DNA of 64,000 nt, taken from a virus (lineage: Duplodnaviria > Caudoviricetes). A program made the position numbers and the translations under genes. Below are positions 22,124 to 56,433 of the stretch, piece after piece. Each line of letters starts with the position of its first letter. Position 1 is the first letter of the stretch. The notes beneath the pieces were generated by a model. It saw only the letters and a list, made by a program, of their open reading frames with translations. It ran no database searches and was not told the origin of the DNA. The DNA is taken from the IMG/VR virus record IMGVR_UViG_3300044991_001466; one strand, 5' to 3'.

Positions 22124-22149
22124 AAATCCAACTTAGGTTGGATTTTTTA
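22124..22149 (+). terminator. Intrinsic terminator after nrdA
   Basis: AAATCCAAC-TTAG-GTTGGATTT hairpin followed by T-rich sequence. Confidence 0.85.
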
Positions 22150-22185
22150 TTTATTACCATTTTAGTATTGTTTATATTTATTGTT

Positions 22186-22638
22186 ATGGCAGTAACATAT
22201 GGTATAGATTTCCCTTTTAGGGATAGTCTCCAAGGTAAGTTTATAAAGATGACTAGTAGTCCTGAAAGAGAGATTAGAGCCAATCTAATTCATCTTTTAT
22301 TGACAAAAAAAGGAAGTAGGTATTATCTACCTGATTTTGGGACTAGATTATATCAATATATTTTTGACCAAAACGATAGCGTGACGTTTAATTTAATTGA
22401 AGATGAAATTAGGGAATCTGTAAAAAAGTATATACCAAATTTAGATATCAATTCAATTTTGGTTATGTCGGCAGAAGATGACCCTGACCATACAACTACA
22501 TTTACAGAAAATGAAGATGAAAGACTTTTTAGAGTAAGTGACAATGCAACTAAACCATACACTGCGGTGGTTAAAATAAACTACACAGTTAATAACGGAG
22601 CTTTTTCATCTTCGGACTTTATAATATTAAACATATAA
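22186..22638 (+). CDS. Baseplate wedge protein, gp25-like
   Basis: GIDFPF...IRANLIHLLLTKKGSRYYLPDFGTRL. True start is probably the ATG at 22186; the track's start at 22138 lies inside the terminator. Confidence 0.85.
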   Translation: MAVTYGIDFPFRDSLQGKFIKMTSSPEREIRANLIHLLLTKKGSRYYLPDFGTRLYQYIFDQNDSVTFNLIEDEIRESVKKYIPNLDINSILVMSAEDDPDHTTTFTENEDERLFRVSDNATKPYTAVVKINYTVNNGAFSSSDFIILNI

Positions 22639-22639
22639 A

Positions 22640-24472
22640 ATGGCTAAAAAAATATCATACGCAACCAGAGATTTCGCTGGATTAAGACAAGAGTTAGTAA
22701 ACCTAACTACCGAATACTATCCTGATTTAATCAAGAACACAAACGACGCATCCATATTCTCGGTATTATTAGATTTGAATGCTGCGGTTGCGGATAATTT
22801 ACATTTCCACATTGATAGAGTTTGGCAAGAAACTATGTTGGACTTTGCACAACAAAGACAATCGTTATTTCATATTGCAAAAACATATGGTATTAAGATA
22901 CCAGGTAATAGACCTTCAGTTTCTTTAGCTGATTTCTCAATAAATGTTCCTGTTAGAGGCGATAAGGAAGACGAAAGATATTTGGGTACAATTAGAATTG
23001 GTGCTCAAGTTTCAGGTGCGGGTCAAATATTTGAGTCTATTACTGATATTGATTTTTCAAGTCCTTTTAATGACAAAGGTGAACCAAATCGATTAAAAAT
23101 ACCAAATTTTGATAGTAACAATACATTAGTATCATATACAATAACTAAAAGAGAACCTGTCGTTAATGGGGTTTCAAGAATATATAGAAGGGTTATCACA
23201 GAATTAGACCAAAAACCTTTTTTAAGACTTTATTTACCTGAACAAAATGTATTAGGAGTTACTTCAGTTATTCATAAGGATGGTACAAGTTTTAACGCTA
23301 ATCCAACGTCTAGTGAATTTACAACGATAACAAATAAATGGTATGAAGTTAAATCTTTAATACAAGATAAAGTTTTCATCCCCGACCCAACTGCGGTATC
23401 TGACAAAGATAATTTTAAGGCGGGAAAATATATTAATGTTGTAAATAAATTTTATACGGAACATACCCCTGAAGGTTATTATTCTTTGACATTTGGTTCA
23501 GGAAATGTAGACCCATTGGATAATTTAGACAATTACATGAATGGTTCACTTAAAGTGAACTTAGCAAGTTATTTGAATAACATGTCTTTGGGGTCAATAC
23601 CAAAAGCTGGTACCACATTATTTGTTAAGTACAGAATTGGTGGTGGAAAAAGTTCAAACTTAGGTGTGAATGTTATTAACAGTGTGGATGAGGTTGAATT
23701 TAATGTAAACGGTCCAAACGGAACTGTTAATAGTCAAGTAGTTAGTTCATTAAGAGTATCCAATGTAACTCCCGCAATCGGTGGTGCTGACCAACCAACA
23801 ATCGAAGAAATTAGAAACATGGTTGCATATAATTTTGCAGCACAAAATAGAGCGGTAACATTAAATGATTATAAATCATTAATTGAAACGATGCCATCTA
23901 CATTTGGTGCACCGGCTAAAGTTAATGTAATGGAAGAAGATAATAAAGTTAGAATTAAATTACTATCATATGATGATTTGGGTAATTTGACTGACACAGT
24001 TTCTAACACATTAAAGAATAACATTATAAATTATCTTTCTGAATATAGAATGATAAATGACTATATAGACATTGCAAGTGGTGAGGTTATAGATTTTGGT
24101 TTAGAGATTGATTTACATATTGATAAAAATGAAAACCCAACTGACATTGTTAGAACGGTTATTCAAAACACAACAAGTTTCTTTGCCATTGAAAAAAGAA
24201 AAATGGGAGACCCATTGTTTGTTGGTGATTTAAAAAGAGAAATTGGTAATGTTGGTGGAGTGACTAACGTAATTGATGTTCGCGTTTTTAATAAAATTGG
24301 AGGTCAATATTCTTCAACTGAAGTATCTCAATCATATAGTGATACTTTAACAAAAGAAATTTTACAATCAGATATGACCATTTTTATGAAATCAAATCAA
24401 ATTTTTCAAATTAGGTTCCCAAATATTGATATAAAAGTGAGGACCAAAACATTAGGAACGACTACATATTAA
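22640..24472 (+). CDS. Baseplate wedge subunit (gp6/baseplate J-like)
   Basis: RDFAGLRQEL N-terminus and AQNRAVTLNDY motif; follows gp25. Confidence 0.85.
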   Translation: MAKKISYATRDFAGLRQELVNLTTEYYPDLIKNTNDASIFSVLLDLNAAVADNLHFHIDRVWQETMLDFAQQRQSLFHIAKTYGIKIPGNRPSVSLADFSINVPVRGDKEDERYLGTIRIGAQVSGAGQIFESITDIDFSSPFNDKGEPNRLKIPNFDSNNTLVSYTITKREPVVNGVSRIYRRVITELDQKPFLRLYLPEQNVLGVTSVIHKDGTSFNANPTSSEFTTITNKWYEVKSLIQDKVFIPDPTAVSDKDNFKAGKYINVVNKFYTEHTPEGYYSLTFGSGNVDPLDNLDNYMNGSLKVNLASYLNNMSLGSIPKAGTTLFVKYRIGGGKSSNLGVNVINSVDEVEFNVNGPNGTVNSQVVSSLRVSNVTPAIGGADQPTIEEIRNMVAYNFAAQNRAVTLNDYKSLIETMPSTFGAPAKVNVMEEDNKVRIKLLSYDDLGNLTDTVSNTLKNNIINYLSEYRMINDYIDIASGEVIDFGLEIDLHIDKNENPTDIVRTVIQNTTSFFAIEKRKMGDPLFVGDLKREIGNVGGVTNVIDVRVFNKIGGQYSSTEVSQSYSDTLTKEILQSDMTIFMKSNQIFQIRFPNIDIKVRTKTLGTTTY

Positions 24473-30841: not shown

Positions 30842-33658
30842 ATGGAAATTCTTAGAAAAAATGTTGATTTAAATATCATTCTTAATCAAGAAACTGATTT
30901 TCAAACTAATGCGGGTTGGCAAGAGAATTTAGTTGCATTTGAAGATGAGATATTGTCTACAATAATTAATCCGATTGAAAATTACGAAACTATTAGGTAT
31001 ATACATAAACCTTATAGTGGGATGACAACAAATGTCGACGATAAACAAACCGATATTTGGTTTTATTTTTATTTTGCAACAAGTGGAAACACACCAAATT
31101 ATGTTCAAGATTATTCAGCACAAGGAATTACAATATTAGAAAATGAAAAAATGATGAAACAATCATCAGAAAGTTTTTTCAGATTAGAATTTTTTAAAAC
31201 ACCAGGTATTTTAGATGTTAGTGGAAATACGATAGGTTATCAACCACCAACAAGACAAAATAGAAAATTGGTTTTTGCAAAAAACCTTTCATTACCGTTA
31301 GGTGAAAAATATTATTATACACCATTAAATGGATATGTTCATTTACCGGTCTTTAAAGGTTCAAATTATGAAAATAAAGAAAACATGTATTTCTTTTGGT
31401 TTCAAGATGAGAGCGTTTTAAAAGAAACTAATTTAAGTGGAAGTACAACAGGAAACACTTTCTTTATGACCGCTAAATTCTTTAACGCAAAAGATGGTAG
31501 CATTCAAGATTTTACAAACGATTGTCACGCCACTGGTTATACAATAAATGAACAAAATGATATGTATTATCAAGTTGATATTGATAAGACAGATTACTCA
31601 TATAAAGTATATTATTTTAACGGTGTTGTTAAATGTGACCAAGTTGGTTTTATTAAAAAACCAATTAACTTTTTTGAAAAGGGTGGAGGAAGTTGTCCTA
31701 ATGGATTAACATATTATACATGTTCTAACGTTACCCCAACCCCAACCCCAACGTTAACACCGGTTAGTCCGACACCAACACCTACATTAACGGCAACTCC
31801 AACGGCAACGCCTGTGTTTAGTAAATGTTCTGATTGTGGATTATCATTAAATGGTGTTCCTGGTGGATTACTTAGTGTAATGACAGCTGGTGTTATTACG
31901 TCAAGTATTGGTTGTACCGTTGGCGAATATGCCATTGATTGGTATTTAAATGACAAAATAGGAGACCCTGAATTTACATCGGCTTCAACTATTGGTGCTG
32001 ACCCTAATGCAACTGTTGCTCACCCTTTTGCAAATGAACCGGTTCAAGGTGGAACTTGGTATCCCGTAATAAAATCAATTTATTTAAATGGAACAAAATA
32101 TTCGGCATATAATGTAAATGGTGTATCATATAGTCCTGATTTATTAAATTGTTTAAGTACAGTTACGGTAAGCAATTATAATTGTACTACGGGTTATCAA
32201 AATTCTACATACCCAATATACATTAATTATACTAACACAACAACAAACTCAGCGTTAGCGAATAGAAGTATTAGATTTGATTTATCGAGTGGAATTAATT
32301 ATTTCGCTTGGAATTTTGCGGGACAAGTAGTTTCTGATTTTATTAAAATAAGTTATTTTAATGTATTGACCCAAACTAAAACTCAACTTGAATATTGGCA
32401 AATTGGTCGAGATGCAGGGTCGACTAATTTAACCTCAAATCCTAAAGTGTGTAGTGATTATTCATTACAAAGAGCAACAGATTTAACATCTTTTAATTTT
32501 TCAGAGGGTAATTATTTAATTATTGAACTAACACCTAATTCAGGTAATAGTAATACAAACTGGAGTTTCCAATGTAAATGTTTAACAGATAGTGGATGTG
32601 CTGACATTATTGACCCAACCGAAGATTTTGGATATACAACTGCAGGAATTACAATGTATTATGATAATGTAAATTGTGGATATGGAATTAATGGTTTAGT
32701 TAAAACAAATGTACTTTCAGGAACATCATTTTATGATAATAATTTTACTAGATATAATACTTCATATATCAATGCTTATATTCACTCACAGTCATCCTTA
32801 CCAACACCTTTAATTTTAAGTGGAAGAACTACCGCTCAAGAACATGGAAATGGTTATGTGTACTACTATTGTCAAAATCAAAATTCGTATACCACAGTTA
32901 CAAAAGTTGGTAATGTTATCACATTTGATTTTGATAATTTAGCGGATTACAACGTATATAAAACACAACATACTGAAGCAATGAATAGTAGTTATATGTC
33001 AAATTACACCTCAGATACTACTAATATAAATCATTATAAGTTTTTTCAAATTGGAGTAATTGAAGGTTTAACTTGTGGTGATAATACACAAGGACAGGCT
33101 TGGTATACGTCACACGTATCGAGTCCAATCGTTTTCAATGATTCAACTAAAAAGATTACATATACTATTGTTAATGTTGTTAATGGATTACCAACTGGAA
33201 ATGTATGTGATACACGTCACACTAATGTAAATTATTATATTAGTAATATTAATAATGCAATTAACGCGAGTAATTTCACATACCAAACTTATATAAGAAA
33301 AGGTGACGGTGGATATTATAGAGCACTTGCCGTTAGGTCTTTGTATGAGTACGTATTCACACAAACCGAAAGTAATACTGGAATTTACACTGACTATATT
33401 CCCGTAAAGCCAGGTGTTTGTGAATCAACACTAATTTCTAAAAATTGGATAGATAGAGGAGTCTCATATTATAATTACATACACGGTATTCAAGTTACAA
33501 TTACTAATGAGAGTGACCCATTAAATAATTTTAAAGTTAATAGTATGGTAAATTATACCACGAAAACATATAATGGTGTTTACACTAAAATCTTTGAAAA
33601 AATAAACGGAGTGGTAAAAACATCCTCAGTTGGTACAACAATAACAACAATACCTTAA
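30842..33658 (+). CDS. Tail appendage/fibre-like protein
   Basis: 938 aa: N-terminal domain, TPTP linker, then a Cys/Asn/Thr-rich beta-type region. Confidence 0.5.
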   Translation: MEILRKNVDLNIILNQETDFQTNAGWQENLVAFEDEILSTIINPIENYETIRYIHKPYSGMTTNVDDKQTDIWFYFYFATSGNTPNYVQDYSAQGITILENEKMMKQSSESFFRLEFFKTPGILDVSGNTIGYQPPTRQNRKLVFAKNLSLPLGEKYYYTPLNGYVHLPVFKGSNYENKENMYFFWFQDESVLKETNLSGSTTGNTFFMTAKFFNAKDGSIQDFTNDCHATGYTINEQNDMYYQVDIDKTDYSYKVYYFNGVVKCDQVGFIKKPINFFEKGGGSCPNGLTYYTCSNVTPTPTPTLTPVSPTPTPTLTATPTATPVFSKCSDCGLSLNGVPGGLLSVMTAGVITSSIGCTVGEYAIDWYLNDKIGDPEFTSASTIGADPNATVAHPFANEPVQGGTWYPVIKSIYLNGTKYSAYNVNGVSYSPDLLNCLSTVTVSNYNCTTGYQNSTYPIYINYTNTTTNSALANRSIRFDLSSGINYFAWNFAGQVVSDFIKISYFNVLTQTKTQLEYWQIGRDAGSTNLTSNPKVCSDYSLQRATDLTSFNFSEGNYLIIELTPNSGNSNTNWSFQCKCLTDSGCADIIDPTEDFGYTTAGITMYYDNVNCGYGINGLVKTNVLSGTSFYDNNFTRYNTSYINAYIHSQSSLPTPLILSGRTTAQEHGNGYVYYYCQNQNSYTTVTKVGNVITFDFDNLADYNVYKTQHTEAMNSSYMSNYTSDTTNINHYKFFQIGVIEGLTCGDNTQGQAWYTSHVSSPIVFNDSTKKITYTIVNVVNGLPTGNVCDTRHTNVNYYISNINNAINASNFTYQTYIRKGDGGYYRALAVRSLYEYVFTQTESNTGIYTDYIPVKPGVCESTLISKNWIDRGVSYYNYIHGIQVTITNESDPLNNFKVNSMVNYTTKTYNGVYTKIFEKINGVVKTSSVGTTITTIP

Positions 33659-34133: not shown

Positions 34134-36977
34134 GTGAAAAAAATTAAACATTCGATAAGTAGAAAATCAATCCCCCAAGTGAAATTAGTTTCATTAACGG
34201 GTAAGACATGGTTTGATGCGGACGGAAGTTTATTTGAATGGTCAGGAACTACGGGTAATTTACCTACGGGATTAACCCCAACAACCGGTTATGTTGTTTA
34301 TAACGTAACTGGCGGAACTGTAACTGGTGGTTATTATTATAAATGGGGAATACCTACAGGTAACACATGGAATAAAATCACAGGAACAACATCCTATATT
34401 AATTCACAAATATATGATACTCACCAAGTACCATTATTTTTAGAATCATCGGTTGATGAATATGGTCCAATGGTTGATTTTGATGGTGATGTTGAACAAA
34501 ATACAATTACCGCCAATTTTGATTATGATATTAGTTGTACGGATTATACAATAACAATCAATAACACCACAAATTTTGGTAAGTTAAAACAACTTAGAAA
34601 TGCAACATACACGGTACATTTTGACGACGGTTTAAAATTACCAATGAATGCAAATCAATCACTTATTAGGAATTTTTCAACAAATGGAGTTCAAAATATT
34701 AAAATCACATTAGATTCACCATTCTTTACTTCACATATTTCTAAAAGTGTTATTGTAGATTGTACTCAATTTGTTAATGCGTCACCAACGCCAACAAATA
34801 CGGTAACACCGACTATAACCGCTACACCAACCGTAACCCCAAGTGTTACACCAACAAGAAACGCAACACCAACTGTTACTAGAACAAGTACCGTAACACC
34901 AACTATTACCAAAACAAATACATTAACACCTACGGTTACACCAACTATAACTGTAACAAATACTGTTACACCAACAGGAACTCCAACAAGATCGGTTGAT
35001 AGTACTCCAACGCCAACAAGTACTGTTACTCCAACATCACTTACACCAACACCTACAACTACAGTAACACCAACTGTTACCCCAACAATAACTGTATCAC
35101 CAACAAATACAGTTACACCAACTGTTACATCCACAACTACTGTTACTCCAACTGTAACCTCAACAGTAACTCCATCAACACCAGACCCAACACCGGCGGA
35201 AACATCTTCACCAACCCCAACTGCCACGGTTACTCCAACAACTACCGTTACACCAACTGTGACATCAACTACAACTGTTACTCCAACCGTAACACTAACA
35301 CCAACAGTAACACCTACGGTGAATTGTTCATTCGGTATCGGAGTTGTGGTATTAGCACCTTCACCTACACCAACAACTACGGTAACACCTACAACAACTG
35401 TTACGTCAACTGTAACACCAACTGTTACGTCAACAATCACATTAACACCTACAGTGACTTCAACAATAACTGCAACACCAACAGTTACAACCACAGTTAC
35501 CCCAACAACAACCGTAACACTAACACCGACAGTTACACCTACGGTTGATTGTTCTTTTGGAATTGGTGTTGTGGTATTAGCGCCTTCACCGACGCCAACT
35601 ACCACGGTTACAAGTACTGTAACTCCAACAATAACAATCACACCAACTGTAACATCAACAACTACTGTTACTCCAACCGTAACACTAACACCGACAGTTA
35701 CACCTACGGTTGATTGTTCATTTGGTATTGGCGTTGTTGTGTTAGCACCGTCACCGACGCCAACAACTACAGTTACAAGTACAGTTACACCGACAGTCAC
35801 AGTAACACCAACTTTAACATCGACAGTTACATTAACACCAACAGTGACCCCAACAAATACGGTCACATCAACTATAACTTTAACACCTACAGTTACTACA
35901 ACACCAACAGTGACATCTACGGTAACACCTACGGTGGATTGTTCATTTGGTATTGGGGTGGTAGTATTGGCTCCTTCACCTACGCCAACAACTACGGTTA
36001 CACCAACTGTAACTTTAACTCCAACTGTAACCTCTACAGTTACACCAACTATAACTCTAACACCAACCGTAACACCTACTAAGGATTGTTTCTTTGATGC
36101 AACATTTACTGAAACATTTACACCACCAAATGAATCTCCAACTTGTGCCTGTTATTCATATACAAATACAACTGATACTAATGGTGAAGTTTATTATACT
36201 TCTTGTTTAGGTAATTCTCCAACAACATCATATGTTAATGCCGGTTTAACCATTACATTTTGTGCGGTATATGGACAATCTGTAACTGCAACATCAGGAA
36301 CAATCGGTGGATTATGTGGTGGTTTTGTTCAATCTTGTCAGGATGATAGTTGGTGTAGCTCTTGTGGTTCTAATATCCCAAGTTCAACTCCAACTCCAAC
36401 AATAACCGCAACACCAACTCTAACACCAAAACCTGCGTCAGTTCCAAGTATTAGAACTAATTCATGTCCTATAGTAACATACAATTCGTTACCTCAAAGT
36501 GGTAATGGTACAATAACTATTGGAAGTAATACCATAACTACAACATATAGTGGTGTTAATACATTATTAACCAATCAAGCTGGCAATTTATTGGTACAAC
36601 CTGTAAATTGCTTACCGGGGTCATATCCAACCGGATATAATTTATGGTTAGGAACATATGCTGGAGCCTTCACATATACCATGACATTTTCACAATCAGT
36701 TAATAACATTTTATTAATGGGTTACGGTAGTGGACAACGACAAGCACCTTCATTATATGAACGTTTTATTATTACAACAAATTCAGGTAATCCAAGCTTA
36801 GTAATATGTAATGGGTGTGGTGGTTATACACAAGGAAATAATTTATACGTGAATTACCCCGGAGATCAAGGTGGTAATACACAAACATTAATAACAGCGA
36901 GTTCATCATTTACTAGTTTAACAATAACAGGAAATGGTGGTCTATTAGGAACTTTGTTCTTACTAGGATTACAATGA
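34134..36977 (+). CDS. Mucin-like Thr/Pro/Val-rich tail fibre/appendage protein
   Basis: 947 aa, GTG start after TATTTATA. About 430 aa of TPTVT repeats with four V(D/N)CSFGIGVVVLAPSP motifs. Confidence 0.65.
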   Translation: MKKIKHSISRKSIPQVKLVSLTGKTWFDADGSLFEWSGTTGNLPTGLTPTTGYVVYNVTGGTVTGGYYYKWGIPTGNTWNKITGTTSYINSQIYDTHQVPLFLESSVDEYGPMVDFDGDVEQNTITANFDYDISCTDYTITINNTTNFGKLKQLRNATYTVHFDDGLKLPMNANQSLIRNFSTNGVQNIKITLDSPFFTSHISKSVIVDCTQFVNASPTPTNTVTPTITATPTVTPSVTPTRNATPTVTRTSTVTPTITKTNTLTPTVTPTITVTNTVTPTGTPTRSVDSTPTPTSTVTPTSLTPTPTTTVTPTVTPTITVSPTNTVTPTVTSTTTVTPTVTSTVTPSTPDPTPAETSSPTPTATVTPTTTVTPTVTSTTTVTPTVTLTPTVTPTVNCSFGIGVVVLAPSPTPTTTVTPTTTVTSTVTPTVTSTITLTPTVTSTITATPTVTTTVTPTTTVTLTPTVTPTVDCSFGIGVVVLAPSPTPTTTVTSTVTPTITITPTVTSTTTVTPTVTLTPTVTPTVDCSFGIGVVVLAPSPTPTTTVTSTVTPTVTVTPTLTSTVTLTPTVTPTNTVTSTITLTPTVTTTPTVTSTVTPTVDCSFGIGVVVLAPSPTPTTTVTPTVTLTPTVTSTVTPTITLTPTVTPTKDCFFDATFTETFTPPNESPTCACYSYTNTTDTNGEVYYTSCLGNSPTTSYVNAGLTITFCAVYGQSVTATSGTIGGLCGGFVQSCQDDSWCSSCGSNIPSSTPTPTITATPTLTPKPASVPSIRTNSCPIVTYNSLPQSGNGTITIGSNTITTTYSGVNTLLTNQAGNLLVQPVNCLPGSYPTGYNLWLGTYAGAFTYTMTFSQSVNNILLMGYGSGQRQAPSLYERFIITTNSGNPSLVICNGCGGYTQGNNLYVNYPGDQGGNTQTLITASSSFTSLTITGNGGLLGTLFLLGLQ
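34782..36083 (+). repeat. Coding low-complexity TPTVT/TPTTT repeat array
   Basis: Degenerate ACACCAAC/GTTAC repeats encoding Thr-Pro-Thr-Val. Confidence 0.95.
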
Positions 36978-36989
36978 TAATTATAAAGA

Positions 36990-38060
36990 ATGGCTAGATA
37001 TTTTGACATAAAAATTACAACGGGAACAGCCCCTGGACCATATACAATCTATTATGATTCTATAGGTGCGGGAAATATTGCTACGTTAACAAGTAATAGT
37101 CAACCAGCCACTAATTTATCATATAATACACTAACAGCGGGAAATGGTGTTAGTGTTACAATACCCGATGGTAGTTATGCATTATTTCTTTATAATGAAA
37201 CTTGTGATATTAATATTCCAACATCTTTCCCAAGTCCAACACCAACCACAACACCAACGTTAACACCGACAAATACTGTTACACCAACATTAACCGCAAC
37301 ACCAACCGTCACACCTACTGTTGACTGTTCATTTGGTATCGGAGTGGTAGTATTGGTTCCTTCACCTACACCAACAACTACGGTTACACCAACTATAACA
37401 GTAACACCAACAATTACACCAACTGTAACTTCAACTGTAACCGTTACACCAACGGTAACACCAACTAAGGATTGTACATATGAATTTGAATTTAATCCAA
37501 TTACAGTTCAACCACCATCAACTATTGAAGTTGGTAGTGCATTAATTGACGTGTTTGTTAATTCAAGTGTTACAGAAATGAAGTTAGTACAATCAACATC
37601 AGCCACATCTGAATTTAATCAGTTTGTTTCTTTATCTGGCACAAAATCTGATAGAAGATTACCGTCAAATATTATACCGGTGTCTAATAGTTATTTATTG
37701 GCACCATTTGATAAATCATTGACTACGTTCTATAGATTTGGTATTAACATTTCATTATTAAAACAAAATTATCCAAATATTAATGTTTTTGAATTTGATT
37801 TATTTGGAAAAAGAACAGATGGTTCATCAGGTGATATTGGAATTAAATTTACCAAAGGAATTAAGATTAATTCATTGATTGATGCCTCATCAAATAACGG
37901 AATAGATTTTGCTCCAGTTACAGCACATCCAAATGACGTTGTTGAGGTAGACCCATCAAATGTTACACGTATAACAGAGTTAGACGAAGTTTTCCAAAGA
38001 TTTGCAACATTTGTCTATAATAAAACTAATAATACTTTTACCTACACAAACCTTATTTAA
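36990..38060 (+). CDS. Tail appendage protein with shared N-terminal module and TPT stalk
   Basis: N-terminal ~75 aa paralogous to 38066..40129; one VDCSFGIGVVVL motif. Confidence 0.6.
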   Translation: MARYFDIKITTGTAPGPYTIYYDSIGAGNIATLTSNSQPATNLSYNTLTAGNGVSVTIPDGSYALFLYNETCDINIPTSFPSPTPTTTPTLTPTNTVTPTLTATPTVTPTVDCSFGIGVVVLVPSPTPTTTVTPTITVTPTITPTVTSTVTVTPTVTPTKDCTYEFEFNPITVQPPSTIEVGSALIDVFVNSSVTEMKLVQSTSATSEFNQFVSLSGTKSDRRLPSNIIPVSNSYLLAPFDKSLTTFYRFGINISLLKQNYPNINVFEFDLFGKRTDGSSGDIGIKFTKGIKINSLIDASSNNGIDFAPVTAHPNDVVEVDPSNVTRITELDEVFQRFATFVYNKTNNTFTYTNLI

Positions 38061-38065
38061 TATAA

Positions 38066-40129
38066 ATGGCGATATATTATAACATAAAATTAACTTCAGG
38101 AACTTCAAGCGGACCGTATACAATTTATTACGATACGATTGGCCCGAGTAATATTGCCACGATAATTTCATCTGGCGACCCTGCTAGTGGTTTAAATTAT
38201 AATACCGTTACAATCGGGGTTAATGTTTCAGTACCTGATAATGCAACGTCAATTTATGTTTATAACACAACTTGTAGTAGTAGTGATATCTTCCAAATAC
38301 CAGCTCCAAGTCCAACACCGACACTCACAAGTACACCAACGTTGACACCAACAATAACAGTAACACCTACGGTGGATTGTTCATTCGGTATTGGGGTGGT
38401 AGTATTGGCGCCTTCACCTACACCAACAACTACAGTTACGTCAACTGCAACGGTAACACCAACAATTACACCAACATTGACACCGGCCCCAACATCAGAT
38501 GTAACATCTACACCAACGGTTACGCCAACAAATACGGGTACACCGGCACCGACATCTGATGTAACATCTACACCAACACCTACAATAACACCTACGGTTG
38601 ACTGTTCATTTGGTATTGGGGTTGTGGTATTGGGACCATCTCAAACACCAACACCAACTCATACATCTGCAGTTACATCCACACCAACTGTAACACCAAC
38701 CCCAACCACAACATCTGAGGTAACGTCTACCCCAACTGTAACACCAACAACGGCAGCGACATCGACACCAGCACCAACATCGACACCAGCATCAACACCA
38801 ACATTGCCAGCACTTTCAGTTTCAGTAAGTTCAGCAACATTACAAACTTGTTGGAATTCTAATGATGCGTCATTTACGTTAAGTGCTAGTGGTGGTAACG
38901 GAGCACCATATGAATATTCAAGAGATAATTCAAATTGGCAGTCAAGTGATACATTTAGTGGTTTAGCTGGTACGTCATATACAGGATATGTTAGAAATGA
39001 TGATCGTTTAGGTACTGTGGCAAGTACTGCAGTTGGTAGTTTAGCTAGAAGTCAACCAGAAGTAAGTGTTTCAAGTGCCGGTTACCCATCTTGTTGGAAT
39101 AGTAGTAATGGTTCATTAGTATTAAGTGGTTCTGGTGGTTCTGGAACATTTTATTATAGTATCGATAATGGTGCTAATTATCAATATAATGATGCCTATT
39201 TCCCTAATTTAACATCTCAAACATATTACATTAGAGTTAAAGATACTAATAATTGTGAATCACAGTCATTAGTACCATATAACTTAACTACAGGAGAACC
39301 GTCAGCTGATTTTACACCTACAAATATATCATGTAATGGTGGTTCAGATGGAACGATTGCGACTTCTGTAATTAATTCTAATGGAATTTATTACAGATAC
39401 AATGCGGGTGCTGGATTCACAAACACAAGTGGAACTAGATATAATGTTGGTACGTCTAGAGGAAGTTTAACCTCAGGTTCATATACTTTTAGAATTTATA
39501 ACTCTAACGAATCATGTTATAAAGATTATACTATTACATTAACACAACCAACTCTACAAACAGCATCTATCACAAGTATTGTAGGAGCCACAAGTGGTGA
39601 CAATGGTTCATTAACAATATCTTCAGGTGGAGGTACTTGGAATAAAACATATAGATTATACAAAGATAGTACAACACCATACAATGATTATCCTACCGAT
39701 AATTTAATCGCAACTTACAGTAACGTAACTGCAGGTTCACCATCATTTAATGTGACAGGATTAGCTTGTGGATATTATTGGTTACAAGTTACTGACGCAA
39801 ATGGATGTCAAACAAATACAATAGCATATCAAGTTACATGTCCAACACCTGCAGTAACATACTATCCTGTTGAATTACGTACAGGTCAAGCTGGTGATAA
39901 CAGTGATTTTGGTAGTGCATGTTACAACTTGGCTAATGGTGCTTTGATGGATGTTGTAATATACACAGAAACGGGATATTTTGATGATGGATATCAAGCA
40001 TATACTAACAGTGGTACACTTTATACGGGTCTTGGTTATTATACTGACGGAATAAATTATGGAAGAATAATAGGAGGAACTATAACCCTTCAAAATTCAT
40101 GTACCGGTGGACCAGTAACTCGGTATTAA
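38066..40129 (+). CDS. Tail appendage/adhesin with TPT stalk and SprB-like repeats
   Basis: SCNGGSDGTI, SGSGGSGTFYYSIDNG and YWLQVTDANGC resemble SprB repeats; two VDCSFGIGVVVL motifs. Confidence 0.6.
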   Translation: MAIYYNIKLTSGTSSGPYTIYYDTIGPSNIATIISSGDPASGLNYNTVTIGVNVSVPDNATSIYVYNTTCSSSDIFQIPAPSPTPTLTSTPTLTPTITVTPTVDCSFGIGVVVLAPSPTPTTTVTSTATVTPTITPTLTPAPTSDVTSTPTVTPTNTGTPAPTSDVTSTPTPTITPTVDCSFGIGVVVLGPSQTPTPTHTSAVTSTPTVTPTPTTTSEVTSTPTVTPTTAATSTPAPTSTPASTPTLPALSVSVSSATLQTCWNSNDASFTLSASGGNGAPYEYSRDNSNWQSSDTFSGLAGTSYTGYVRNDDRLGTVASTAVGSLARSQPEVSVSSAGYPSCWNSSNGSLVLSGSGGSGTFYYSIDNGANYQYNDAYFPNLTSQTYYIRVKDTNNCESQSLVPYNLTTGEPSADFTPTNISCNGGSDGTIATSVINSNGIYYRYNAGAGFTNTSGTRYNVGTSRGSLTSGSYTFRIYNSNESCYKDYTITLTQPTLQTASITSIVGATSGDNGSLTISSGGGTWNKTYRLYKDSTTPYNDYPTDNLIATYSNVTAGSPSFNVTGLACGYYWLQVTDANGCQTNTIAYQVTCPTPAVTYYPVELRTGQAGDNSDFGSACYNLANGALMDVVIYTETGYFDDGYQAYTNSGTLYTGLGYYTDGINYGRIIGGTITLQNSCTGGPVTRY

Positions 40130-40196
40130 TTTGACATAAAAAAAGATTTAAAATGAAACAAAATAAACATATATTTATAAATAAACATAATTAATT

Positions 40197-41613: not shown

Positions 41614-42534
41614 ATGGCAGTAGGATCATATGGTATAATTAGACCGGCGGACGTTTCACCATCAGATGTGGAGATTTTATATCATTACACAGCTAATAGA
41701 ACATCCACGGCCGAAGTAACATTAAAGAAATTAGTATCTGAGGATATATTGACACCTGTGTATCATAATGATGCAACCACAGATTCAACAACCGCACCTA
41801 ATAATGAAATTATTGGGGGATTGTATAATTTGAAATTAAAATCTGCGGATTTCTCAGAATTGGGAATTTACACATTACATATTAGACCAAAACAAATTAG
41901 AACTTCAATTACGGATTGTGGTGTTTTAGCGGCATTACCATCGGTTAGGGGTTTGGTTATTGATTTAACAAATGTACCTTCACTTGATAAAAATAAGTTT
42001 ACACCACAGGGTTTAGTGGGATATAGAGTTGAGTATATTAATAGTGCAAACAATCAAAAAGTACCCAATTTTTACAGGGTGGTCACATCTTCTTTCTTTT
42101 GTGAACCGGTTGTTTCTAACTTAACAACCACAACAGAAAAGGCTATAAGATATCGTTATAAGGATTCAGCAACAAACTTAATGTTTTTAACTTTAACACC
42201 ATCTTCAGCACCTTCAAGTAGACCAAACGTGGTTCCATTTATTGGTGAACCAAGTCAAAAAATTATATTAACAAATACCTTCTTTAATCCAACAACAGTT
42301 GAGGTTGAAATGGTTGAACATGATTCATCAACATTGGCACACGCACTTTACGGTAATCAATCTAAGGCGGTTGCCCCTGGTATATACACAATTTACGATG
42401 AGGCTAATAACATCTATAAACAATATAACTTATTTGAAATTAAGGATGAGTTTAATAATAGTCTTTTCGAGGTTAGAGAAGAAAGAACAAATATTGATGA
42501 GACTTTAAATTTAGATAATATCACTAACGCATAA
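41614..42534 (+). CDS. Putative virion structural protein
   Basis: 306 aa, in the baseplate/tail module, preceded by TATTTATT. Confidence 0.5.
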   Translation: MAVGSYGIIRPADVSPSDVEILYHYTANRTSTAEVTLKKLVSEDILTPVYHNDATTDSTTAPNNEIIGGLYNLKLKSADFSELGIYTLHIRPKQIRTSITDCGVLAALPSVRGLVIDLTNVPSLDKNKFTPQGLVGYRVEYINSANNQKVPNFYRVVTSSFFCEPVVSNLTTTTEKAIRYRYKDSATNLMFLTLTPSSAPSSRPNVVPFIGEPSQKIILTNTFFNPTTVEVEMVEHDSSTLAHALYGNQSKAVAPGIYTIYDEANNIYKQYNLFEIKDEFNNSLFEVREERTNIDETLNLDNITNA

Positions 42535-44999
42535 TGACAGTAGTAAAAAGAAGAGTTCCAAGTTTGGCCGCAAGCGGTAATCAAACCTTTAGTGATAGTT
42601 TAGTCGGTGTACAAATTACCGACGGAAGCTCACAACTGGCGAACACGAACTTTGCTGTTGATAAAATTATACCAGAAAAAGATAGTAAAAATTTTAAAAC
42701 ATCACCATTTTCTGAATTTTTAACATTAGATAATTTAAAGACTGAAGAAGATGTTCCATCAACTCAAGATGGTAGTATTCAAAAAGATGAAAAGATAAAG
42801 TTTAAAGGTGGAATTGATGATGCAGGTAAATCACTTTATGGTTCATTAAAACAAAGATTAAATGTTTCTGTTGGTAAAATTATTACAAAATTTCCAGCAT
42901 CAATTTTAGTTGATAGTGATAGTCTTGTTAAATCATCAGATTATACCGCATCAGGAATTACATATAGTGCTATTACAACAAGTACAGATTTTTATGTTCA
43001 AAAATCAATCTTATATAACCCGTTTGATGTTGTTTTAGTTACACCAAGTAGTAACACAACACCAGCAACTAAAAATAAAATTAGAAATTTTTATTCCTCA
43101 TATAAAAAATATGTGGTTGATTATAGTGGTCAAACTTATAATATATTAAGTTATACTGAACCTGACGCAAACAATTTAATAAAATTAAGAGTATCGGGAA
43201 AACCATTTGGTACAGGTTCAACAATTAATGATAATTTTTTAATAAGACCGAACGATACGATTAATGAGGAGTTCTTTAAAAATTTAGATGACTTAGAAGA
43301 ACTATTATTAAATAGAGAATCTAATCCTAAATTTACTGCATCATTTAAAGTACCAAGAGATAGTTTTGACCAAACCACAACGGATATTATTTCTGTTGAC
43401 GTTTCATGGCCATTATCAAGAGACGGATGGAACCCACAAATTATTGGAACCAACTACGAATATTATGTTAGTAAGTTAAGTGACCTCGCTGATGAGATTG
43501 ATGATTATAAATCAAATTTAATTGTTAGATTTTTAACATCACCACAACTATTTGAATTTGATACCGAAGACCGAAAGGCGGAAGCGGTATTTCAATTATA
43601 CGGACAATCTTTTGATAGAGTTAAAAAATATATAGATAACATCGCCTTCATGAGGAATGTTAGTTATGATGGATTAAATAATGTTCCCGATATTTTATTA
43701 AAAAATTTATCAGAAACATTAGGTTTATCTACCGTTAATTTATTTAACGAGAAAAGTTTAAAAGACACAATACATACAAGAACAGACACACAATATTCGG
43801 GAGTATCGATTGGTAAAACATTAATTGAAGCTGAATATGAATTTTATAGGAGACTATTAACAAATTTAGCTTACCTATATAAATCAAAAGGTACAAGACA
43901 ATCTTTAGAATTCTTTTTAAAATTTTTAGGAGCACCAAATCAGTTAATTAGAATTAATGAATTTGTATATGATGTGAAATCTAAAATTAATTTAAATTAT
44001 TCTGGTGACACATATGAAACAGTACAAGGAACAAAAATAGATACCGTTATAACAGGAACAACTGCAGTTACGGGAAGTACTTTCATATATTATAGTGAGG
44101 GAACAACAGGATTAACAAGTGGTAACACTTTTAACACAGGTTCAATAACAGGGTCAACAAATCTAACATTAGATGAATATCCGATTGATGAGGACGGTCT
44201 ACCAAGAAAAGTTACAAGTTTAAATTCTGACATTTATTTCCAAAAAGGTTCGGGTTGGAATAATATCACGTTAGACCATAGGTCATCAAATATTATTGAT
44301 ACGGACTTATCAAGTGGTTCATTTGTTGATGGGGTTTTTCAATTAACAGGTAGAACTAAAACAATAAAAACAAAACCAAAAGATTATACGTATGGTGAAG
44401 ACTATTTTGATAGTTTTAGAACTTTAGATGGTCTTGATTATGGATTTGAATTAGAAAAAAGAATTGATAATAAGAAAGTTAGTGTTAGTGATGATGAAAC
44501 ATTATCTAAATTTATTTTAAATAGAAAAAACATTGAGGTTTATTTGGTACCGTCACAAGGAATTGAATATGACATATATAGACAAGGTAGAAATTTAGAA
44601 TTAACATTTGGTAATTTAATACCACAAACCGGAAGTACATTTGACAACTATATTGACACCGTATTGGGTCAAGTAATTACTAATTCAAATAGTGCTAAAT
44701 TTAGTAAATCATATAGTGGACTAACAAAAGTCTTTTATGATTACACAACCAACACAAACACAGGGTTTACTCCTTATAATTTTACATCAGTAAATGAATT
44801 CATTAATAAGATGAGTCCATATTGGATTCAAGTTGTTGAACAATTTGTTCCAGCAACTACGTTATGGACGGGTGGAAATTTAATTGGAAATAATATTTTC
44901 AATAGGTCAAAATACGATTATAGAAAACCAAGATATGGTGTTCCTGTGGTTAGTACAACTTATGATAGTGTAACATTTAATTGTGAAGAAATAGAATAA
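42534..44999 (+). CDS. Baseplate wedge-like protein (gpI/gp7-like)
   Basis: LLKNLSETLG...YRRLLTNLAYLYKSKGTRQSLEFFLKFLG resembles the P2 gpI-type wedge motif. Confidence 0.6.
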   Translation: MTVVKRRVPSLAASGNQTFSDSLVGVQITDGSSQLANTNFAVDKIIPEKDSKNFKTSPFSEFLTLDNLKTEEDVPSTQDGSIQKDEKIKFKGGIDDAGKSLYGSLKQRLNVSVGKIITKFPASILVDSDSLVKSSDYTASGITYSAITTSTDFYVQKSILYNPFDVVLVTPSSNTTPATKNKIRNFYSSYKKYVVDYSGQTYNILSYTEPDANNLIKLRVSGKPFGTGSTINDNFLIRPNDTINEEFFKNLDDLEELLLNRESNPKFTASFKVPRDSFDQTTTDIISVDVSWPLSRDGWNPQIIGTNYEYYVSKLSDLADEIDDYKSNLIVRFLTSPQLFEFDTEDRKAEAVFQLYGQSFDRVKKYIDNIAFMRNVSYDGLNNVPDILLKNLSETLGLSTVNLFNEKSLKDTIHTRTDTQYSGVSIGKTLIEAEYEFYRRLLTNLAYLYKSKGTRQSLEFFLKFLGAPNQLIRINEFVYDVKSKINLNYSGDTYETVQGTKIDTVITGTTAVTGSTFIYYSEGTTGLTSGNTFNTGSITGSTNLTLDEYPIDEDGLPRKVTSLNSDIYFQKGSGWNNITLDHRSSNIIDTDLSSGSFVDGVFQLTGRTKTIKTKPKDYTYGEDYFDSFRTLDGLDYGFELEKRIDNKKVSVSDDETLSKFILNRKNIEVYLVPSQGIEYDIYRQGRNLELTFGNLIPQTGSTFDNYIDTVLGQVITNSNSAKFSKSYSGLTKVFYDYTTNTNTGFTPYNFTSVNEFINKMSPYWIQVVEQFVPATTLWTGGNLIGNNIFNRSKYDYRKPRYGVPVVSTTYDSVTFNCEEIE

Positions 45000-52453: not shown

Positions 52454-54782
52454 TCCTTTTATTAAAGTTACGTGGCAGGATGTTCCTGAAAATTTCACCC
52501 CTGAGAAAATCAGAAGGGTGAAATCTTATTTTGAGAAAAAGTATGGTGCGAAGTCAGTTCAAGTTATTACTAAAACATTGGCCAACGTAAATCAAACACG
52601 TTTAGAATCCTTAGAGGCATCTGATAATATTTTAGACCATCAGTATCAAAAGAAACTGATGAAAGATTTCCTTAGAGATAACAACATTGTTATTAAAGAG
52701 GAACTGATGGAAAGACTAGATAATAAAGTCAACACTCAAATAGATAAGTTAAATGAAAATAAAGTTAGATATAACAAATGGTACATCAAGAAAGTTGAAT
52801 TCTCAAACTTTTTATCATTTGGTGATAATAATGTTATTGATTTTACAGGTTTGGACGGCATTACTGTAATTGAATCCACACCCAAAAATTTTGGTGGTAA
52901 ATCAACATCATCAGTTGACCTTTTAATGTTCTTATTTTTTAATGCAACAACCAAAACTAAAACCAACGGTGAAATCTTTAACAGATTTACAGATAAAAAT
53001 GAGGTAAGTGTTCGAGGTGAAATTACTATTGACGGAGAAGATTATGTAATTGAAAGAAAGACTTCTCGTAAAATGAGTAAGTCGGGTGAATATACAATTA
53101 AAAACGAATTAGAATTCTTTAAGAAAGATGAAGATGGGACTATCGTCAATTTATCTGGTGAACAAAGAAGGGAAACCGAAGCGTTTATAACTTCAGCAAT
53201 TGGAACCCAAGAAGATTTCTTGTCAACCATTTTAACAACAGGATATAATTTAGAAGAGTTAATTGAATCTAAACCAACTGCTCGTGGACAAATTTTAACA
53301 AAGTTCATGGGATTAGAAAGTCTTAAATTAAAAGAGGAAATTGCTAAAGAAATTTTCAACGATTGGAGTAAAAAATTAATTTCTAACACACACGACAAAG
53401 TTAATTTAGAATCTGATAATCAAACATATAAAGAAAGTATCACTAACTCCGAAAGTGATATTGTTAGATTAACAAAAGACTTAGGTAAGTTTGAAAAGGA
53501 TTTAGAAAAGTTAGAAAAGAAAAGAGACGAAGTATTCTTAAAAAGAAACAATGATGTTGATAAAGAATTATTGAATACAAACCCAACTTTATTACAAAGA
53601 GAAGTTACTTTTTTATTAACTCAAAAAAACGTAAGTCAAACAAACGCGGATAATATTTCAGTTATAGAACCATCACAATATTATCATGAGGACCAACACA
53701 AAGAGTTAAGAGGTGAGATGGCCAATCTTCAAGGAATTGATGTTGTATGCAAACACGAAAAAAGTGACAGAGAAAAACTAATAAAGAAATTTGAAGAAGG
53801 GACAGTTTGTCCAACTTGTAATAGAGCGTTAGATGAGGTAGACCACACAGATGAAATCAATAAAATTAAAAAAGAAATTGAAGACATCATCAAGTCAATG
53901 GAAGAAAATCAAATTCAATTTGATTTATTAAAAGAACAATCCGAATCGTTTGACACATTAAAGACTGAGTTTGAAACTTACGAAAAGAATAAACTTCGTA
54001 AAGAAAGATATGAATTGGAGGTTGAACAAAAACAACTTGAGATTGATACTAAACAAACAAGACTAGATAATTACGAAAGTAATAAAAAGAAACTTGAGGA
54101 TAATCAAAAAATAGATGCTGAAGTAATATCCCTTAAGACTAAAATTGAAACGGCAAACGGAGACATAAGACAAACAAATACTAACATTGAAAAACATACC
54201 AACAATATCACTAACATGAATGATAAGATTGGTATCAATGAAGAGTTGATTAAAAAAATAACAGCCGAAGAAGAGTTGTTGTCTGTGTTTAAAATATACC
54301 TAACTGTTTATGGTAAGAATGGTATTTCAAAAATCATACTTAAAAATATGGTACCGTTAATCAACCAAGAGTTATATCGTTTGTTAGTGGATAGTTGTCA
54401 TTTCATTTTAGAGATGAATATAAACGATAAGAACGAGGTTGAATTTATAATGATAGATACTGAGACACGAATTGTTAAACCTCTTAATGCGGGGTCTGGT
54501 TACGAAAGAACCATATCCTCTTTAGCACTTCGTAGTGTGTTAACTAAAATTTCATCATTACCTAAACCAAACATTGTGGTAATGGATGAAGTATTTGGTA
54601 AGATAGCGGATGAGAACTTAGAAATGGTAGGGGAATTCTTTAAGAAAATTAAAAATTACTTTGACCACATACTTGTTATATCACACAATTCTTTAATACG
54701 CAACTGGTCAGATAATATTATCATGATTAAGAAAGAAGAAAACGTTTCATCAATAGATTTTATCACTACCAAGATTTCTTAA
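52446..54782 (+). CDS. sbcC: SbcC/Rad50/gp46-like ATPase
   Basis: Walker A NFGGKST, long coiled coil with CPTC zinc hook, signature GSGYE, Walker B VMDEVF and ISH. Confidence 0.92.
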   Translation: MSNPFIKVTWQDVPENFTPEKIRRVKSYFEKKYGAKSVQVITKTLANVNQTRLESLEASDNILDHQYQKKLMKDFLRDNNIVIKEELMERLDNKVNTQIDKLNENKVRYNKWYIKKVEFSNFLSFGDNNVIDFTGLDGITVIESTPKNFGGKSTSSVDLLMFLFFNATTKTKTNGEIFNRFTDKNEVSVRGEITIDGEDYVIERKTSRKMSKSGEYTIKNELEFFKKDEDGTIVNLSGEQRRETEAFITSAIGTQEDFLSTILTTGYNLEELIESKPTARGQILTKFMGLESLKLKEEIAKEIFNDWSKKLISNTHDKVNLESDNQTYKESITNSESDIVRLTKDLGKFEKDLEKLEKKRDEVFLKRNNDVDKELLNTNPTLLQREVTFLLTQKNVSQTNADNISVIEPSQYYHEDQHKELRGEMANLQGIDVVCKHEKSDREKLIKKFEEGTVCPTCNRALDEVDHTDEINKIKKEIEDIIKSMEENQIQFDLLKEQSESFDTLKTEFETYEKNKLRKERYELEVEQKQLEIDTKQTRLDNYESNKKKLEDNQKIDAEVISLKTKIETANGDIRQTNTNIEKHTNNITNMNDKIGINEELIKKITAEEELLSVFKIYLTVYGKNGISKIILKNMVPLINQELYRLLVDSCHFILEMNINDKNEVEFIMIDTETRIVKPLNAGSGYERTISSLALRSVLTKISSLPKPNIVVMDEVFGKIADENLEMVGEFFKKIKNYFDHILVISHNSLIRNWSDNIIMIKKEENVSSIDFITTKIS

Positions 54783-55580
54783 TTTTAAAATATAATCTTT
54801 AAGACCATTTTCTAAATTCCATTTAGATTTCCAACCAAACATCCATTTATGTGGTTTACTTTCAGTATGGAATTGATATCCATTAGGAATATCTTTTTCA
54901 TCATGATATGTGTATGGTATGTTTAAATTATCTAACACATCTTCAAAGGTTCTTGCAACACCATTACCAACTTCATACCAATCACCTGCGTTTTCTTTGT
55001 AATTTTCCATTGCAAATATGTTGGCACTTATAATGTCTTTTACATAAACAAAATCTCGTTTAGGTTTAAGTGGAAATAATTTAATTTCCAAACCTTCTTC
55101 TTGTTTTTGTAACATTTGATATGCAACTGAAGCCATCTTTCCTTTATTATGTTCTAAAGGACCATAGACATTAAAATAACGTAAAGCAATCCCACCATTT
55201 TTAATTACTAATTGTTCCGCAACGTACTTACTCCAACCATATAGGTTAGATGGGTGTATACCATTAGTTCCGTAATTTGCTGCTGACGATGAATATATGA
55301 GTTTACTGTTCATTGTGTTTGACCATTCAGATAAACAACGTGTAAATTCGTAGTTTCTGGTCATCATATAATTGACATCTGTTTCCAAAGTATCGGAACA
55401 AGCACCTACGTGAAATATGACATCAGGGACAAAATCGTCTAATAAATCAAATATTTCATCATACCATTTAGGTAGGTCAAAAATGTCTTCATTTATTTCT
55501 AAAATTACATGGTTATTTACAAGTTCATTTAATAGGTTTTTTCCAATAAAACCATTTGTTCCTGTTATTAAAATTCTCAT
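54750..55580 (-). CDS. hldD: ADP-L-glycero-D-manno-heptose 6-epimerase
   Basis: ITGTNGFIG, HVGACSDT, YSSSAANYG, YGWSK and RYFNVYGP..HNKGKMASV motifs. Confidence 0.88.
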   Translation of the reverse strand: MRILITGTNGFIGKNLLNELVNNHVILEINEDIFDLPKWYDEIFDLLDDFVPDVIFHVGACSDTLETDVNYMMTRNYEFTRCLSEWSNTMNSKLIYSSSAANYGTNGIHPSNLYGWSKYVAEQLVIKNGGIALRYFNVYGPLEHNKGKMASVAYQMLQKQEEGLEIKLFPLKPKRDFVYVKDIISANIFAMENYKENAGDWYEVGNGVARTFEDVLDNLNIPYTYHDEKDIPNGYQFHTESKPHKWMFGWKSKWNLENGLKDYILKLRNLGSDKIY

Positions 55581-55581
55581 A

Positions 55582-56404: not shown

Positions 56405-56412
56405 TATATTTG
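56405..56412 (+). promoter_or_regulatory. Bacteroidota-type -7 element upstream of clpP
   Basis: TATATTTG is an exact match to the TAnnTTTG consensus, 21 nt before the ATG at 56434. Confidence 0.5.
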
Positions 56413-56433
56413 TCACATACAAATAAACTTATT

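Follow-up and report, generated by a model that had tools for sequence, protein, structure and literature searches.

A short cysteine-containing element punctuates the stalks of three putative phage appendage proteins encoded in a 64,000-nucleotide stretch of virus DNA (Duplodnaviria; Caudoviricetes; IMG/VR record IMGVR_UViG_3300044991_001466), the whole of which is called the window here. The element, which we call the node, is set in strict (Thr-x)n repeats, is kept constant as a peptide by selection, and is a rare repeat family that has not been described before. In the window it reads V(D/N)CSFGIGVVVL(A/V/G)PS and is found in seven in-frame copies in three translated open reading frames (ORFs), four in gene A, one in gene B and two in gene C; none of the six frames of the window contains a further copy. 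The translated ORFs place all seven exactly where the initial annotation had put them, and the codon variants TTCGGTATCGGA, TTTGGAATTGGT and TTTGGTATTGGG are confirmed among them. The genes (lengths in amino acids, aa) and their nodes are as follows.

34134..36977, plus strand: appendage gene A, 947 aa; N-terminal module, stalk of about 435 aa with four nodes, Cys-rich tip
36990..38060, plus strand: appendage gene B, 356 aa with 3 Cys, at residues 72, 113 and 162; anchor of about 80 aa, one-node stalk, tip of about 195 aa
38066..40129, plus strand: appendage gene C, 687 aa; paralogous anchor, two-node stalk, SprB-repeat-like tip
35319..35366, plus strand: node 1, gene A, VNCSFGIGVVVLAPSP
35544..35591, plus strand: node 2, gene A, VDCSFGIGVVVLAPSP
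35709..35756, plus strand: node 3, gene A, VDCSFGIGVVVLAPSP
35934..35981, plus strand: node 4, gene A, VDCSFGIGVVVLAPSP
37320..37367, plus strand: node 5, gene B, VDCSFGIGVVVLVPSP
38372..38419, plus strand: node 6, gene C, VDCSFGIGVVVLAPSP
38597..38644, plus strand: node 7, gene C, VDCSFGIGVVVLGPSQ

The D-to-N variant of node 7 is found in lake-water contigs and in a syntenic 154-kb contig, L002. Selection was estimated by Nei-Gojobori counts over the 21 pairs of the seven copies, using the 11-codon core DCSFGIGVVVL. The proportion of synonymous differences (pS) is 0.59, which is near saturation, and that of nonsynonymous differences (pN) is 0.012, a ratio of 0.02, while the 16-codon blocks beside the nodes have pN/pS values of 0.41-0.75. 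The copies are therefore old as DNA and constant as protein, and the peptide is maintained by selection rather than by chance or recent gene conversion. This is what had been proposed from the near-identical peptides and their synonymously diverged codons.

Homologues of gene B in metagenomes, and the contigs that carry them, contain many variants of the node in the same setting, each flanked by TPTPT. Examples are NCDFDVDLNIA, NCEFVVTVDIA, NCDFNVNIGVV, DCSFGVDIQIL, ECYFGIDVNVI and QCFFGIDVNVV. The node can be defined as the 11 residues [D/N]-C-x-F-x-h-x-h-x-h-h, where h is hydrophobic; a first profile was made from 105 distinct node contexts, and the final tally from metagenomic relatives is 222 distinct contexts. 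Among the 105, position 0 is always C and position 2 always F, positions 4, 6 and 8 are V, I or L, position -1 is N, D, E or Q in 101 cases, and positions 1, 3, 5 and 7 are variable (D/S/E/G/N/T) and chiefly acidic, amide or Gly. The C and the F remain invariant over all 222 distinct copies. An alternating hydrophobic pattern kept across so many variants indicates the character of a beta-strand, amphipathic and with a conserved hydrophobic face. The initial annotation had described a short hydrophobic beta-strand with one Cys; the strand character is upheld by the 222 variants, and the Cys is effectively invariant. When all distinct Pro-free hydrophobic islands flanked by Pro-Thr (PT) runs are counted, 110 of 113 contain Cys, and the one examined of the three counted as lacking it is a degenerate node in which the Cys is retained. 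Such invariance suggests a part for the thiol chemistry in addition to packing. The node is present regardless of linker length (19-117 aa) and of the accompanying anchor or tip.

The degree of conservation differs between lineages. The node is frozen over its full length in the window and in L002 and L008 (pN 0.01-0.06, pS 0.46-0.76), and the node sequence is identical across different genes of L008, as it is in the window genome. In L005-L007 the pattern alone is conserved (pN 0.22), and in L006 and L007 several node types stand side by side in one protein. The exact sequence given in the initial annotation thus defines the motif for this lineage, and elsewhere only C-x-F and the hydrophobic-face pattern are kept; purifying selection in relatives, which had been named as a point on which the proposal could fail, is found in L002 and L008 as in the window. 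One face of the window node reads C-F-I-V-V and the other, normally the variable face, S-G-G-V-L, so that both are apolar or small. The strand is probably fully buried in the window lineage, which would account for all 11 residues being frozen there.

The stalks between the nodes are as regular as the nodes themselves, and lie at the following positions.

34776..36086, plus strand: stalk of gene A, about 435 aa; strict (Thr-x)n between nodes, the phase slipping ahead of node 1
37230..37472, plus strand: stalk of gene B, (Thr-x)n
38306..38803, plus strand: stalk of gene C, (Thr-x)n

Thr (rarely Ser) occupies 172 of the 183 alternate positions between nodes in the window. For the four segments of gene A from node 1 to the exit Cys the in-phase Thr/Ser counts are 31/32, 21/22, 31/32 and 18/19; for gene B they are 15/15 and 18/19 (its Cys-bearing strands being 41 and 49 residues apart), and for gene C 11/12 and 27/32 (Cys spacings of 35 and 75). 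The intervening residues are drawn from P, V, I, L, S, T, A and N, with Pro making up about one third to one half, and in gene A the phase slips ahead of the first node (interval 188). Thr is found at offsets -11 to -3 upstream of the Cys and at +10 to +22 downstream, which means that each node moves the Thr phase by one residue, and because of this shift the distance from Cys to Cys is odd. This holds for successive nodes in 145 of 149 distinct intervals from the window and its relatives, and three of the four even intervals conceal a degenerate node or an inserted domain. The intervals in the window are 75, 55 and 75 aa in gene A and 75 aa in gene C, within a range of 19-117 aa across relatives. 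The commonest is 23 aa (27 distinct intervals), which is also the shortest barring 19 and 20 aa, and in P0111 up to nine nodes follow one another at exactly this distance.

The stalks are thus strict (Thr-x)n repeats rather than generic mucin-like linkers. A Thr/Pro bias between globular modules is present as in mucin-like or PT linkers, but the register is not irregular, with 172 of 183 positions in phase and odd spacing in 145 of 149 intervals. The parity rule may have a mutational origin, as every tandem-repeat period found by Tandem Repeats Finder (TRF) is a multiple of 6 nt, or it may instead be structural. A further proposal, which we regard as doubtful, is that (Thr-x)n and Cys-Phe nodes would together form a new fibrous architecture, a ribbon of two-residue period in which each node resets the register by one residue and which serves the phage as a plug-and-play scaffold for freely exchanged anchors and tips; odd spacing would then be structural and not due to hexanucleotide slippage.

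When lake-water contigs are aligned to the locus, the assemblies break within the stalks and the joints are repeat artefacts; in two runs the tip regions had no coverage. On the minus strand of the window, antisense to the stalk, a long open ORF of 366 aa (34766-35866, GVTVGV...) was rejected as a real gene, being the mirror image of the low-complexity repeat. In L002 an antisense frame (8050-9270, minus strand) is annotated in the public record as a 406-aa gene, and the real plus-strand gene of 856 aa is there reduced to a 226-aa 'VWA' fragment; the antisense call is apparently an artefact that the low-complexity repeat causes in annotation.

Further Cys-bearing strands lie at stalk ends.

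34755..34781, plus strand: entry strand of gene A, VDCTQFVNA; last strand ahead of the stalk
37197..37229, plus strand: entry strand of gene B, ETCDINIPTSF; from alignment
38267..38305, plus strand: entry strand of gene C, TTCSSSDIFQIPA; from alignment
36072..36119, plus strand: exit strand of gene A, TPTKDCFFDATFTETF; begins TPTKDCFF
37458..37502, plus strand: exit strand of gene B, TPTKDCTYEFEFNPI; begins TPTKDCTY; start of the tip domain

A KDC(F/I)FDATFTETF strand stands ahead of the Cys-rich tip in the window and ahead of the von Willebrand factor A (vWA) tip in L002 and P0017/P0018. To judge from these sequences, the exit strand is the first strand of the tip cassette or lies just ahead of it, and it travels with the tip. 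The two exit versions that the initial annotation had reported thus exist (36072 and 37458), but they are tip-cassette strands rather than degenerate copies of the motif.

Anchors, stalks and tips are combined in many ways among the homologues. The counterpart of gene A in L002 has the same N-terminus and stalk (with three nodes) and a vWA-like tip. The tip domain of gene B is common to P0001-P0012, where it stands behind at least three different N-terminal modules, and its anchor is common to P0013, P0015 and P0019, whose tips differ. The anchor of genes B and C is also found with vWA (P0017/P0018), delta-60 repeat (P0025-P0033), cadherin (P0142) and SprB (P0119) tips; the last two pass the Pfam cutoffs, P0119 with 52 bits for SprB. 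The gene C tip itself is a weak match to Pfam PF13573 (SprB; 22.3 bits against a cutoff of 28, E=1e-4), and homologues in L005 and L007 carry SprB matches. Taken together, the node/stalk connector goes with eight or more kinds of N-terminal module and with many tips (SprB-like, cadherin, vWA, delta-60 repeat).

The points of exchange can be read from L002, which is colinear with the window and has 84-92% DNA homology in the stalks and the flanking genes. The homology ends at 36122, just past the exit strand of gene A, and ends again at 37466, at the exit strand of gene B. It restarts at 38314, the start of the gene C stalk, ends at 39843 and restarts at 40143; between these breakpoints the tips and one anchor differ. 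The positions of the breakpoints therefore mark the stalk ends as exchange points. The modular fibre-building system suggested in the initial annotation is in this way borne out, by the comparison of homologues and by the L002 breakpoints.

Several observations on neighbouring genes may be added. The plus-strand gene at 42534-44999 of the window encodes 821 aa and has no nodes; its homologue in a phage carried by a metagenome-assembled genome (MAG; L081 8528-16951, G001:C1) has 2808 aa and 14 nodes of the form NCDFD(V/I)D(I/V)(D/N)IA, with a C-terminus unlike that of the window protein. Upstream of gene A, a protein of 938 aa (30842-33658, plus strand) has a short PT linker at residues ~296-325 with no internal node, bounded by the Cys segments YYTCSNVTPTPTP and FSKCSDCGLSL. 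ORFs of 72 aa, which are not in the window, lie between the appendage genes in L005 (12912-13130) and L008 (9770-9988); they may be assembly chaperones.

The rarity of the node is apparent from database searches. Against 1.84 billion representative proteins, the profile of 105 contexts gave 56 matches at E<=0.001, 27 of them at E<=1e-10, and all of these carry PT-flanked nodes or PT runs. No known repeat family, the other finding that could have overturned the original proposal, accounts for it: no Pfam family covers the stalks or nodes, NCBIfam has no match to them, and PHROGs gave only sub-significant matches of unknown function at residues 398-409 and 600-613 (phrog_3087, phrog_9715). The best match of the node profile among PDB sequences has an E-value of 0.87 and covers the PT part only. 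A tblastn search of cultured phages with gene B found no match, and look-alikes of gene B in the ESM Atlas are only weak viral hypothetical clusters. In IMG/VR, the exact window-type motif was found on one contig, L001, in a homologue of gene C. A degenerate DNA pattern run against 185,579 species genomes gave 71 matches, with real nodes on one contig, L011, from a Flavobacteriaceae MAG, and this contig carries a related phage. The motif is not described in the searchable literature on PT-rich or Thr-rich phage fibres and on freshwater Flavobacterium jumbophages.

Genes A-C are encoded in the baseplate/tail module, which is the gene order of a tail fibre or baseplate appendage. The module begins with two baseplate wedge genes, assigned through PHROG matches (phrog_261, phrog_43, phrog_219 and phrog_6).

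22138-22638, plus strand: gp25-like baseplate wedge gene
22640-24472, plus strand: gp6-like baseplate wedge gene

The wedge genes head the appendage block, in a same-strand run that is unbroken as far as 46538. They are followed by three other large ORFs and then by genes A, B and C, which are consecutive. Synteny of the block is kept in L002, L005, L007, L008 and G001. The window as a whole is AT-rich (~31% G+C), has almost all genes on the plus strand, and shows PHROG matches to a UvsX-like recombinase, an exonuclease, a DnaB-like helicase, both ribonucleotide reductase (RNR) subunits, a primase, RuvC and SbcC. The nearest named DNA is from Tenacibaculum and Cellulophaga phages, with similarity limited to the RNR genes, and the gp6-like protein of the window has 76% identity to one encoded on a 248-kb contig that was binned in a Flavobacteriaceae MAG; this bin contains DNA of a related phage. 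Contigs from 20 lake-water metagenome runs of 2024-2025 include the complete gene B stretch (36990-38060), and the window itself may come from some of these runs. The phage thus appears to recur in fresh water as a population, and the source is probably an uncultured lineage of large freshwater myophages with a host, as the related DNA suggests, in the Flavobacteriaceae.

Elsewhere in the window, plus-strand genes encode a ClpP-family protease (56410-57108) and a sigma-70-type factor with regions 2 and 4 (59007-59822). The sole clear minus-strand genes (54750-56346) encode an NAD-dependent epimerase/dehydratase and a PfkB-family sugar kinase, which could form a nucleotide-sugar (heptose-like) module. 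No glycosyltransferase was found among the window ORFs scanned, and a link between this module and the Thr-rich stalks is speculative.

The mechanism we favour, at a probability of roughly 0.4, is that these proteins are baseplate-linked appendages in which an amphipathic Cys-Phe strand within (Thr-x)n stalks connects anchors to exchangeable adhesin or receptor-binding tips, and in which like nodes pair so that the Cys staples the stalk chains together. With only one invariant Cys, a node would need a partner outside itself. Like nodes would align side by side and in register, so that Asp/Asn, Cys, Phe and the aliphatic residues would each form a ladder; stacked ladders at conserved Asn/Asp, Cys and aromatic positions are a recurring feature of beta structures that are parallel and in register. 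The invariant thiol would then cross-link the paired nodes, either through a metal ion that they share or as a disulfide that forms once the phage has been released into oxic water. An oligomeric stalk would in this way have its chains stapled at fixed points, though with nodes just 23 residues apart the staples might instead join successive nodes of one chain.

A number of points weigh against such stapling. Phage fibres are usually trimeric, and one Cys per node cannot fully pair in a symmetric trimer, which would need a metal site or would leave one free thiol, unless the stalk were a dimer instead. Phage assembly takes place in the reducing cytoplasm, and the virion location of genes A-C is taken from gene order only. 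The polar face of the node is highly variable in L005-L007 (pN 0.22) and invariant in the window lineage, and a single mechanism must cover both. Long stalks without nodes also occur (P0015, P0016, P0025), so nodes are not required for a stalk. Lastly, both AlphaFold2 (AF2) monomer models have low mean confidence scores (pLDDT 40-46). For gene B, with a 24-row alignment, the mean pLDDT is 46 and the node is modelled as coil; for a nine-node array (P0111:262-500) it is 40, and the model places eight strands on or near node positions, a possible lead to beta-strands on most nodes. A Foldseek search of the nine-node model against the PDB returned nothing at E<=0.001, and its top non-significant rows are beta-solenoids. 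A homotrimer prediction for residues 60-180 of gene B scored 0.03 and carries no weight either way.

The main rival to chain stapling is an intrachain fold, which we consider unlikely: successive nodes, together with the Cys-bearing entry and exit strands, would stack into a small beta-sheet or solenoid, with Thr-x segments as loops or return arms and a compact stalk as the result. The 23-aa spacing, the commonest and near-shortest, suits such a fold, as by our estimate of the geometry an extended linker of 12 residues is about the return length along an 11-residue strand, and arrays of up to nine nodes at exactly this spacing exist in P0111. The near-absolute odd spacing could be a register constraint between neighbouring nodes, and the AF2 model of the nine-node array has a sheet of eight strands of 7-14 residues (at pLDDT 40, a lead only). 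The spacings in the window are 55-75 aa, however, and in relatives the spacing is continuous over 19-117 aa, unlike a solenoid. Proteins with a single node occur (gene B, P0013, P0019), loops would not need strict Thr periodicity, and AF2 confidence is too low for the sheet to count as evidence.

Distinctly unlikely is a docking or recognition tag, where a common partner binds the node by beta-strand addition or a modifying enzyme recognises it; candidate partners are an assembly chaperone, the anchor module of another appendage (giving branched fibres) or a decoration protein. A shared reader would fit the identical nodes of three proteins at saturated synonymous divergence, repeated across the genes of L008, and the alternating hydrophobic pattern is like that of the donor strands of chaperone-usher pili. 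Yet L006 and L007 mix node types within one protein, and a single anchor family occurs with at least eight node variants or none, with no obvious partner seen to co-vary. Among candidate partner genes none follows the node type, and strand docking alone does not explain the invariant Cys.

It is highly improbable that the nodes are evolutionary scars, that is, functionless remnants of the first strands of former tips, left behind by tip swaps and tandem duplication of the stalk. They do resemble the exit strands of tip cassettes (TPTKDCTYEFEF, TPTKDCFFDATF), the mosaic breakpoints are at these junctions, and TRF finds duplication units of 165 and 390 nt. Unselected remnants would decay as the flanks do, whereas in the window lineage pN/pS is 0.02 at saturated pS, and C and F never vary among the 222 distinct copies; the reading is rejected on this strong purifying selection. 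A DNA-level element, such as a recombination or regulatory site with an incidental peptide, would be at home in a recombining, cassette-swapping region, but its chances are next to nil, refuted by synonymous divergence: third codon positions are free (pS 0.59), the peptide is constant, and there is no conserved nucleotide core. Known short motifs were also tried and rejected. The Bacteroidota O-glycosylation sequon D-[S/T]-[AILVMT] does not fit a motif reading D-C-S, a lipobox or transmembrane segment lacks the lipobox context and would have just 9 hydrophobic residues, and an intein-like N|C junction is at odds with the missing His and with the E, Q or S that also precede the Cys.

Parts of the architecture can be found in known systems. 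Mucins have Thr/Pro low-complexity spacers (PTS linkers, rich in Pro, Thr and Ser) between modules, interrupted by Cys-bearing hydrophobic elements, the CysD domains, that are thought to cross-link. The phage linker, by contrast, is a strict dipeptide repeat (172/183), its interrupter is an 11-residue strand with one Cys and not a domain of ~110 residues, and there is no sequence relationship. In a similar way, the hinges of the immunoglobulins IgA1 and IgG3 are extended Pro/Thr segments with spaced single cysteines that tie parallel chains in register. The hinge cysteines, however, belong to contexts of the CPxCP type that have no hydrophobic beta-strand, hinges are dimeric, and again there is no homology. 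In T4 the His-x-His iron sites of the gp37 tip and the Zn site of gp12 lie on the threefold axis; they too are short fibre motifs in which like residues of the chains meet on the axis and lock the chains. The phage nodes have no His, so that the ligand would be Cys with Asp/Asn, and T4 shafts are made of beta-structured repeats, not Thr-x repeats.

Ladders like those proposed here are known from beta-solenoids, such as the Asn/Cys ladder of leucine-rich repeats (LRRs) and the Asn ladder and aromatic stacks of pectate-lyase-type beta-helices. The Asn/Asp before the strand, the Cys, an aromatic and beta-branched aliphatics are fixed in both, and a 23-residue period is in the LRR range. Unlike in LRRs, the phage period is not constant (55-75 aa in the window, 19-117 aa overall), and there is neither an LxxLxLxxN pattern nor a Pfam match that would mark an LRR-type solenoid or beta-helix. 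The amyloid-core heptapeptides of Candida Als proteins are short beta-branched aliphatic stretches in a Thr-rich adhesin stalk, proposed to zip neighbours together; they have neither an invariant Cys-x-Phe nor a regular parity, and belong to a eukaryotic cell wall protein with no homology to the phage stalks. The (Glu-Pro)n(Lys-Pro)n of TonB and the (Glu-Pro)n of procyclin are strict dipeptide repeats with Pro at alternate positions, forming rigid extended spacers. In the phage stalk it is Thr that is constant, the alternate position is partly Pro and for the rest mostly V, I, L, S or T, and Cys nodes interrupt the repeat. A collagen-like phage fibre, with Gly as every third residue, differs in turn, as the stalks are nearly Gly-free and have a period of 2, not 3.

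Receptor-binding appendages set the host range of a phage, and the way in which their modules are joined and exchanged is of practical interest for phage engineering. The Thr-x stalk with Cys-Phe nodes is a compact and very regular connector with natural recombination breakpoints at its ends. Annotation pipelines register it as low complexity only, but its strict Thr periodicity and odd node spacing suggest a defined structure. If the nodes do staple chains, they would be a minimal oligomerisation or cross-link element of 11 residues, independent of linker length, and would be of interest to protein designers.

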